Source: Reclinomonas americana ATCC 50394
Lineage: Eukaryota
Direction of reading: 5' to 3'
Assembly: GCA_048213135.1 (NCBI GenBank)
Contig: PS015773.1
Location: 1,588 to 35,060 of the forward strand
DNA length: 33,473 bases
The notes beneath the pieces are model-generated. The model did not search any database. It saw only the letters and a list, made by a program, of their open reading frames with translations, and was not told where the DNA came from. Positions within the stretch are counted from its first letter, which is position 1; each line of letters starts with the position of its first letter. This document shows positions 27,463 through 30,400 of this stretch, one piece after another. A program made the translations under genes and the position numbers.

Positions 27463-30400
27463 TTACAGCACCGGCGTGACGGCGACAGCCATGGACTCCT
27501 GTGCGTGACTGGGTGAGAACAGCGTGCGTGAGCAGGAGTTGATGTGGCTGTTTGCGCAACGATGGCACACTCGTCGGTTCCGCGCTGTGACACAATGTGA
27601 GTCATGAAGCGAAAGACAAGGAGAGACAAAAAAAGGCAGAGTCGACTTACCCGAATGCGGAAGAAACCGTCCTCGCCCCAGGCAGTCTGCGCGAGATGGC
27701 AGTGAGAGGAGTGGGGGAGCAAGAGGCAGCATGCAACCAAGGGAGAGAGAGAGAGACAAACCCCTGTGTTGTTGTGGACATGGCGACGATGAACGCAAAA
27801 GAAATGTGAGAAGACGGGGCATCTTCAGTTGTCTGTCAACCAAGCAACTCACCCCTGCAGTCACACGAGTGAGACATCGCACGACAAGCACACATTGTGG
27901 ACGAAGATATACTCACCAGCTGTTCTTGACCTTCCAGAACTGCGACGATGACGAGGAGACTCGTGTTAGTCAAGAACGGGGGAGGACACGCGCCGAAGCG
28001 AGCAGCGACTCAACCTTCACGCCATCGGATGTGGTTCCGTATCCGACAATTACCACGACTGCAAAGCAAAGAGAGAGGAGTAAGAGGGATAGTCATGCAG
28101 GCTCGGTGGCACGACCACAAACCATCTGCGCAAATGACGACACGTGAGTGGTGCGCAGCATGTCAAAATCAATGACAAAAGGCGCAACGATTGGTCAGCT
28201 GGAACGGGTTGAAGGTCACCAGGTGCGACACTGCGGTGTGCGAGTACACGCCACCCTGCCAGGCAAGCTTCAGTCCAGCAAACGACACACTCTAACCATC
28301 GGTAACGCCACACACCTTGTAGTTGTGCAGGTCGGGGTATACCTCGAACGAGACAGCAATCGGGCCATTCGCCACCAACTCCTCCATCATGTTCAGCTCC
28401 GTGGCCGCACCGTAGTAGCCACCAATGTAGTGGTAGTCGCTGTGCAACGGAGCATGTCAGAGGGAGGGAGAGAGTGACGAAAAAAGCGTGGCGAAAGGGA
28501 ACGAAACGAGGTCCAGTGCAGGCGCGGGTTGGAGCAGCGCTTCGAGCACGACACCTACAGCCATGGATGGTGAGAGAGGTGACAGAAGCGGCAGCGTGTC
28601 CTGCACACACCTCCGTGGCAACATACGGGAAGCAGCTCTCCTCCACGTGTCCAAAGTCGTGGCCGTACTGTGCGGTCGCACGAGGCGAGTGCAGTGAGCG
28701 ACGACTAAATTACACAGGGAGACGAAGAGAACCAGACCTTGCCAGCAGCCAGGTACGGGAAGCCGCCTGCGTCAACACATTTCGTCAGTCGGGTGCACTC
28801 GGCACAGGAAGAGAGGTGACAACACACACCGTTGCAGCCGTGCGAGTAGACAGAGCACGAGACAATGTTCTGAGTACTGAGAATGACCTACACAAATACA
28901 CGCGCACGTGCGTACGTGAGCAAAGCACTCAAGTCATACACTTCAAGCAAGGCAGGCAGGCAAACGCACCGTGTTCGTGTTGTTGGAGAGAATGCGCAGG
29001 CGAGCCTCGAGTGTGGCCGCCGACGCAAAGGCGTAGCAACTGCCGCATTGCTGTGTGGTGCACGGTGATGCGCGCGCATGAGCAAGTCAGAGTGGGGGAG
29101 GGAGGGAGAGAGGGAGGGAAAGAGTGCGACTCACCCCCTGGTTGCTGTTGGCGAAAACGAGAAAAAGAAGCAGATGAGTTCACAGCGTGAGAGAGACAGC
29201 AATCGCGCGACAGGCACGCACCGAATGGGCGACACGTAGCTCACCTGTACAAAATAACACAATCAGCACGTGAGAGACTGCCATAGCACCCCCTGCATTT
29301 CGTGTGTATCACGCAACTCCATTGACATTGGTCCAATCCCACGAGTCCGGCAGCGTCGACGACAGCGACGTGGCCGCGTTCTCCGCCAACTCCGGCTTCT
29401 GCGGCTTGGTGACAGCGGCGGCCAACTCCTGGCGCGCATACGAGCCACCGGCACGGCGCTCCATCTGAACAAGGCAGCGTGGTGAGCTCGAGTTCACAGG
29501 TGTGATCCGAGTCACGCTTCACGCAACATCGCCAATGGTCAACCCGAGGTGCTCGTCGTAGGTAGTGGCCGTCCACAGGCTCTGCGCCTTGTTGATGGCG
29601 TCCACAAACTCAAAATCGTGCTCGTACCTATGCACACGCCATGTGAGTCGACGACATACACGAACGAGGCATCACGAAACACAACTTGAGCTGGGCGCGG
29701 AGCGGGTCGACCACGGCCAAGTCGAGGCTCGTGCGGAGCGGCACCTTGGGCGTCTCCGGCGCGTTCTGCGTCTTGATGCCAAAGTAGCAGCCCCAGTTGC
29801 CCGGCTACAAGTGCCATGAGACGAATGAGCAGCGCACGCACGAAACACAATCTATGCTCTTCAAACGGCCTCACCGCATACTGCTCTCCATCGTTATGGT
29901 ACCACCCCGGCAGCGTCTCGGAGCACACAGAGGTCACATGGCCACTCGGATCGGTCACCCACTTGGAGAAGGCGAAGAAACGACGACCGCCGACCTTGAC
30001 TGCACTCACGGTTGAGAACAATGACGCCAAACACACAATGACAAGCGAGAAAACAAACCGTCAAACGACCTGTCATGAGGGGGTTTACATAACAACAGAA
30101 GGTGATTAGTGAGTGTGCAGTGCGCGCCTGTGCACGGTTCTGTTTGTTACACGAAACATGGAATAAATCATGGTCCAGAAACCCTGATTGCCGGCACTAT
30201 CCGTGACCTTGTCGGGGTAATCCAGTGTGACTGTGTACGTGTTCTCCACCTATTGTACGCGCATCCACTGAGCACACACACAGTGGAGAAGAACAAACAA
30301 GCGCGCGCGCAACAGTGAAGGGATTGGTGCAGTTGATGTTGTCACGAGTGAAGCCGGCCGGACCCAAGTGGAACGTCCACGTGCCACGCACCTGTGACGC

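Follow-up and report, generated by a model that had tools for sequence, protein, structure and literature searches.

The 33,473-nucleotide (nt) stretch of Reclinomonas americana ATCC 50394 analysed here (contig PS015773.1, positions 1,588 to 35,060 of the forward strand; hereafter the window) carries a gene for cathepsin C, or dipeptidyl peptidase I (DPPI), in which the codon of the catalytic histidine appears to be completed by an exon of only 3 nt. All positions are those of the window, and all cathepsin C features lie on the minus strand. The gene was modelled with a purpose-written protein-to-genome aligner that admits GT-AG introns of 35-400 nt (intron penalty 10, gap cost 6), lets one codon be split over any number of exons and was run with four homologue queries; the start codon was set by eye. 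The resulting 1443-nt coding sequence (480 codons) keeps its reading frame open across all exons. Every one of the introns is GT-AG, with lengths of 56-89 nt (mean 68.3, standard deviation (SD) 9.7), and their density, 17 per kb of coding sequence (25 introns in 1.44 kb), is to our knowledge above the densities of well-studied genomes. Whichever of the four queries is used, the 3' half of the model comes out identical, and the 3-nt exon is part of it.

By homology, the gene encodes a putative complete, secreted or lysosomal cathepsin C of an intron-dense eukaryote. Aligned over 415-456 residues, the spliced model shares 49-55% identity with five homologues and has no gaps at its microexons, and homologues P0002-P0004, P0008 and P0010 bear the Pfam families PF08773 and PF00112. 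Exon 17 (41 residues) matches the human and rat DPPI structures with E values of 5.8e-10 to 1.6e-7 and cathepsin B at about 0.1, and it is up to 80% identical to uncharacterised eukaryotic proteins with PF00112 and PF08773; none of these matches is a protein of the same species. A Pfam scan of the 219 stop-free open reading frames (ORFs) of at least 88 residues, out of 503 of at least 45, found CathepsinC_exc (PF08773) in the ORF piece at 29542-30060 (E 1.2e-7, 32.4 bits, cut-off 27) and again, under the cut-off, at 30200-30658 (E 9.2e-4); Peptidase_C1 and other short-exon domains gave no match in these 219 frames. A signal peptide precedes Asp1 (MKFCALLLVFLAVFCVAAAPYAVVA, then DTPANC), whose codon at 30538-30536 is the last of exon 1; this junction was picked with two of the four queries, P0008 giving SQTPANC and P0004 lacking the N-terminus.

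We numbered residues after the human DPPI structure 3pdf_A and assigned their roles, including the chloride site Phe278/Tyr323, as described in PMC8836896. Asp1, Gln228, Cys234, Phe278, Tyr323, His381, Asn403 and Trp405 are all intact in the spliced model: the catalytic Cys234 lies in QCGSCYAF (exon 12), Phe278 and Tyr323 in GGFPY and DYHYIGG, and Asn403 in exon 21, while the Trp405 codon is split TG/G between exon 21 and the first of two 2-nt exons. His381, the dyad partner of Cys234, is present only when the 3-nt exon is included. Since all other active-site features are intact, selection seems to have kept the gene as that of an active enzyme, and the product is likely to be an ordinary active cathepsin C.

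The 3-nt exon is the ATG of exon 19 (Table 1). Exon 18 ends in CAG CTG ACC AAT C, its last base at 28189, and exon 20 opens with TC GTG GTA ATT GTC GGA TAC GGA at 28058, both in minus-strand reading; the ATG supplies bases 2 and 3 of the His381 codon and base 1 of the following Val codon. An exhaustive listing of canonical GT-AG chains from exon 18 to exon 20 yielded five, two of them in frame and stop-free. One removes a single 130-nt intron, skips the ATG and joins FQLTNLVVIVGYG, which reads TNLVVIVGYG without the His; the other includes the ATG and joins FQLTNHVVVIVGYG, which reads TNHVVVIVGYG. At the matching place the human structure has ELTNHAVLLVGYG, with its His at chain position 381. 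Read-through of intron 18 or 19 leads to a stop or a frame shift. A preliminary description of this site, made from the sequence alone, had given its coordinates, both intron lengths and both translations exactly to the base. Its identification of the gene as cathepsin C and of the His as catalytic is supported by the DPPI matches, the 3pdf_A numbering and the five-homologue alignment. The chain listing likewise bears out its statements that skipping would leave an in-frame, near full-length, His-less protein and that the ATG exon would be needed for the catalytic His, only inclusion encoding that residue among the canonical chains.

Table 1 Features of the cathepsin C gene and of the rest of the window.
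Feature	Position	Strand	Remarks
Cathepsin C/DPPI gene	27463..30613	minus	ATG 30613-30611, stop TAA 27465-27463; 26 exons, 25 introns
Exon 18 (67 nt)	28189..28255	minus	GGVYSHTAVSHLVTFNPFQLTN + first base (C) of His codon
Intron 18 (63 nt, GT...AG, phase 1)	28126..28188	minus	donor GTTGCGCC, CTCAC at -20, acceptor TTTGCGCAG
Exon 19 of 26 (3 nt, ATG)	28123..28125	minus	picked with 4/4 homologue queries
Intron 19 (64 nt, GT...AG, phase 1)	28059..28122	minus	donor GTTTGTGG, CTTAC at -23, pyrimidine tract, acceptor TTTGCAG
Exon 20 (44 nt)	28015..28058	minus	(V)VVIVGYGTTSDGVK
Exon 22 (2 nt, GG)	27853..27854	minus	third base of Trp405 codon + first base of Gly406; 4/4 queries
Exon 23 (2 nt, GG)	27762..27763	minus	completes Gly406 codon; 4/4 queries
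Exon 11 (10 nt)	29135..29144	minus	CAACCAGGGG; holds oxyanion-hole Gln228 codon; 4/4 queries
Exon 5 (11 nt)	30059..30069	minus	GTCGTTTGACG; 3/4 queries, P0003 giving a 2-residue deletion instead
Tandem 3-nt exons TAC, CTG, ubiquitin-activating enzyme E1 gene	14370-14372, 14461-14463	plus	
Candidate 4-nt exon CTGT, E1 gene	14115-14118	plus	introns 67 + 87 nt
Intron (342 nt), E1 gene	15948-16289	plus	largely tandem or low-complexity repeats
Intron (383 nt), UPF0172-family gene	25640-26022	plus	largely tandem or low-complexity repeats
TPR-repeat protein gene	600-2850	plus	Pfam
Arf-family GTPase gene	5389-6039	minus	Pfam
Large ZNFX1-like helicase gene	17076-23378	minus	AAA_11/AAA_12, RZ-type zinc finger (ZnF_RZ-type E 7e-26)
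N run	13537-13690		154 bases; interrupts E1 gene
N run	32123-32457		335 bases

The histidine at this site is invariant: all five homologues and 3pdf_A have it, as do all 33 alignments obtained from the 31 metagenome loci (of 37) that reach the site; the other six loci end before it or gave no alignment. A survey of 57 DPPIs reports Cys234-His381 as conserved in all its sequences (PMC8836896). The 3-nt ATG exon, the sole canonical route to this invariant residue, is very likely real and needed for protease activity.

Splice signals and chance controls point the same way. Introns 18 and 19 fall within the gene's range of lengths, and a merged intron of 130 nt would exceed the mean length of the remaining 23 by 6.1 SD. 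When splice sites were ranked with leave-one-out position weight matrices over the 25 introns of the gene, the 3-nt exon's own acceptor and own donor each came second, and the outer acceptor, that of intron 19, came sixth. The motif CTNAY stands 9-45 nt before the acceptor in 21 of the 25 introns (6.2 expected from shuffles), and both flanking introns have such a branch-like motif. When the introns next to 2-3-nt exons were left out of matrix training, the exon had the top acceptor-plus-donor score among 37 candidate exons of at most 4 nt in the window; the counts of this splice-site scan are flat over exon lengths of 1-30, which makes it unspecific. Of 20,000 shuffles of the 130-nt stretch that preserved its dinucleotides, 105 (0.5%) produced a His-completing exon of the form AG/3 nt/GT with both sub-introns at least 50 nt long, and 192 did so when sub-introns of at least 40 nt were allowed.

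Besides the ATG exon, the gene models of the window call for at least four further exons that are 2 or 3 nt long. Two of these, the tandem GG exons of the cathepsin C gene, are bounded and separated by introns of 62, 89 and 75 nt. Between AAC AGC TG (27917) and ACT GCC TGG (27686) no single intron among the canonical chains keeps the frame; six of the 29 canonical chains across this Trp405/Gly406 junction are in frame, and only the chain that includes both GG exons gives NSWG-TA-WGEDG, the spacing of every homologue (NSWG-xx-WGE). These 2-nt exons cannot be skipped without loss of frame, so the organism must include such exons faithfully. The other two are the tandem 3-nt exons of the ubiquitin-activating enzyme E1 gene, about 14 kb from the cathepsin C gene, where NFP (ending at 14295) is joined through YL to IEH (starting at 14531) across introns of 74, 88 and 67 nt. 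We examined 150 proteins, of which 127 were fragments or lacked the NFP..IEH motif; all 23 E1 homologues with the motif have exactly two residues between its halves, often with Y first and sometimes with L second. Three of the five catalytic-site residues of the cathepsin C gene (Gln228, His381 and Trp405) touch exons of 10 nt or less. Judged by these models, constitutive use of exons of 3 nt or less appears to be routine in this genome. Elsewhere in the E1 gene, the candidate 4-nt exon CTGT would give KCN-CC-IVIPG, and a single 154-nt intron in its place would give KCN-WC-IVIPG, of equal length.

Several points weigh against the ATG as a genuine exon. We infer its inclusion in the mRNA from homology and splice signals; the outer donor, that of the upstream intron 18, ranks 19th of 25; and the splice-site matrices were built from only 25-33 introns. 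Small exons can be spurious: the scan gave a high score to an AT exon at 25749, a false positive inside the repeat-rich 383-nt intron, and the aligner called an 11-nt exon in the E1 gene with one query where the alignment was continuous with another. The His codon is uninterrupted in all 31 metagenome loci that cover it, which are distant and some of which are possibly transcript-derived and so silent on introns, and on exon 17 none of the 37 metagenome loci exceeds 71% identity. Finally, the usual introns of the window measure 56-94 nt, but repeat-filled introns of 342 and 383 nt exist, which makes a 130-nt intron unusual and not impossible. Taking both sides together, we assign a probability of about 0.8 to the reading that a genuine coding exon, in constitutive use and a by-product of extreme intron density, is formed by the ATG at 28125-28123.

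The arrangement of signals suggests how such an exon might be spliced. Introns 18 and 19 are each complete, with a GT donor, a branch-like CTNAY motif and a CAG acceptor of their own, and each short intron would probably be recognised singly, across the intron (intron definition). The footprints of U1 and U2AF are such that two introns 3 nt apart could hardly be engaged together. With the upstream acceptor and the downstream donor no more than 3 nt apart, introns 18 and 19 would probably be removed in succession and not simultaneously, in a manner resembling recursive splicing with 3 nt kept. Splicing would then join C/AT/G/TC into CAT, for the catalytic His381, and GTC, for Val. Both the order of removal and the constitutive use of the exon are inferred.

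The preliminary description went further and proposed a regulated on/off switch, an idea that finds no support here. The ATG would in that case be a regulated cassette exon, included less in some conditions to give a full-length dead cathepsin C that might act as a decoy, or skipping might just turn the enzyme off. Skipping would indeed keep the frame and leave every other domain intact, and regulated 3-nt exons are described in animals, for example in cytohesin-1 (PMC6314551). Frame preservation is automatic for any 3-nt exon, however, and so singles nothing out. Few splice sites of the gene are stronger than those of the exon itself, each flanking intron has its own branch-like motif, the region has no unusual RNA structure (fold z 0.27, with 114 of 200 shuffles folding at least as well), and no Rfam family reaches its gathering score anywhere in the window. 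Moreover, the cathepsin C transcript must always include the two 2-nt exons or lose its frame, which makes accurate inclusion of exons of 3 nt or less a basic ability here, and the neighbouring E1 gene also needs two tandem 3-nt exons. Short-intron eukaryotes are described as erring mostly by intron retention (PMC2397502, PMC6142364): retained introns are reported to far outnumber cassette exons in fungi and most protists studied, the ratio following intron length (PMC2397502), and exon skipping to be frequent only in bilaterians (PMC6142364). A regulated switch thus appears unlikely.

That the ATG is never used, with the 130-nt intron removed to give a natural His-less pseudoprotease and the AG-ATG-GT a coincidence, we regard as very improbable. 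The 130 nt can be read as a canonical GT...AG intron whose removal keeps the frame, and the two longer introns of the window show that lengths beyond the usual range occur; those introns are filled with repeats, however, and the 130-nt stretch is not. The coincidence itself has a probability of about 0.5%, to which must be added the two typical sub-intron lengths, the two branch-like motifs and the top-ranked splice sites, and every other catalytic and substrate-binding residue is kept, which would be unexpected for a dead enzyme. Scarcely credible is a decaying pseudogene or assembly artefact whose tiny exons reflect an over-fitted gene model: the aligner is permissive (intron penalty 10), some small exons are doubtful and the window contains two runs of N, but these runs lie elsewhere, the 1443-nt frame is open across 26 exons with a signal peptide and Asp1 and is gap-free around every microexon, all 25 introns are GT-AG and of 56-89 nt, and the 3' half of the model is the same with all four queries.

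The constitutive reading of the ATG exon has consequences for annotation. Exons of 1-3 nt are described as rare and usually missed by gene finders (PMC8831610). Under standard annotation, the protein would lose the catalytic His and be reported as a 'dead protease', or the gene would be broken at its two 2-nt exons. For gene prediction that takes account of microexons, the locus is a compact test case, as it is for an intron-definition spliceosome faced with splice sites 2-3 nt apart. A broader and more tentative proposal, to which we give somewhat less than even odds, is that the lineage carries 2-4-nt exons genome-wide, including runs (2+2 and 3+3 nt) between 60-90-nt introns, inside catalytic motifs of conserved enzymes. 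If so, its spliceosome would routinely and accurately handle acceptor-donor pairs separated by 2-3 nt, presumably by removing adjacent introns in obligatory steps, and standard annotation would make many enzymes that are active look like pseudoenzymes.

Among the introns of the cathepsin C gene, seven of 25 start with GTTGCG, an unusual donor consensus, and the remaining donors are GTGAGT, GTGCGT, GTGTGT, GTTTGT, GTTTCG and similar. Recent duplication and a repeated introner family were considered as sources of these introns and rejected for want of support: the only matches in an all-against-all BLAST of the 25 introns were short and of low complexity, and introns 18 and 19 did not match each other. 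In contrast to the intron density of the cathepsin C gene, uninterrupted matches of more than 100 residues were obtained for the helicase-like and TPR genes nearby. Between the UPF0172-family and cathepsin C genes (about 26180-27040), CT/CA tracts are abundant and the sequence is also rich in loosely repeated units (for example ...ggagagacagg...cgcattc...ctc...).

The predicted protein resembles cathepsin C/DPPI (MEROPS C01.070; PDB 3pdf, 1k3b and 1jqp) in its whole layout of signal peptide, exclusion domain starting from Asp1, propeptide and papain-like domain. It differs from human DPPI at position 331 (28403-28405, minus strand), where it has Ala in place of a free Cys; P0002, P0003, P0004, P0008 and P0010 also have Cys here, and in human DPPI the free Cys is reported to be important for tetramer formation (PMC8836896). 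The substitution may bear on the oligomeric state. Compared with the 31 related loci that cover the catalytic site, some of which may be transcript-derived, the gene is far more fragmented.

Exons of 1-3 nt are already documented. They include the plant 1-nt exons of APC11 and VPS55, validated by reverse-transcription polymerase chain reaction according to PMC8831610, 3-nt exons reported in the dinoflagellate Amphidinium carterae (PMC12584245) and a 3-bp exon described in human RPS24 (PMC12207440). The ATG exon shares with validated microexons of this size that it is too short for recognition on its own, has canonical flanking introns, would be essential for the correct protein and belongs to a kind routinely missed by annotation. 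Unlike them, it is known from genomic sequence, carries a catalytic residue and sits in a gene with four more exons of 2-11 nt, including a consecutive 2-nt pair. What is unusual here is the catalytic residue, the tandem 2- and 3-nt exons and the intron density; our searches of open-access literature turned up no description of a 3-nt exon that bears a catalytic residue, of 2-nt or 3-nt exons in tandem or of as many as 25 introns within 1.44 kb.

In animals, switch-like neuronal microexons are described as SRRM3/4-dependent and alternatively included (PMC12626424). The ATG exon is like them in being a frame-preserving 3-nt exon whose inclusion would alter protein function, and unlike them in its strong splice sites and in showing no sign of alternative use. 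Recursive splicing in Drosophila proceeds through AG/GT 'zero-length exons' within introns of tens of kilobases. The present arrangement is similar in that a donor follows an acceptor almost at once, which would force stepwise removal, and differs in that 2-3 nt are kept in the mRNA and that the introns measure about 60-90 nt and not tens of kilobases.

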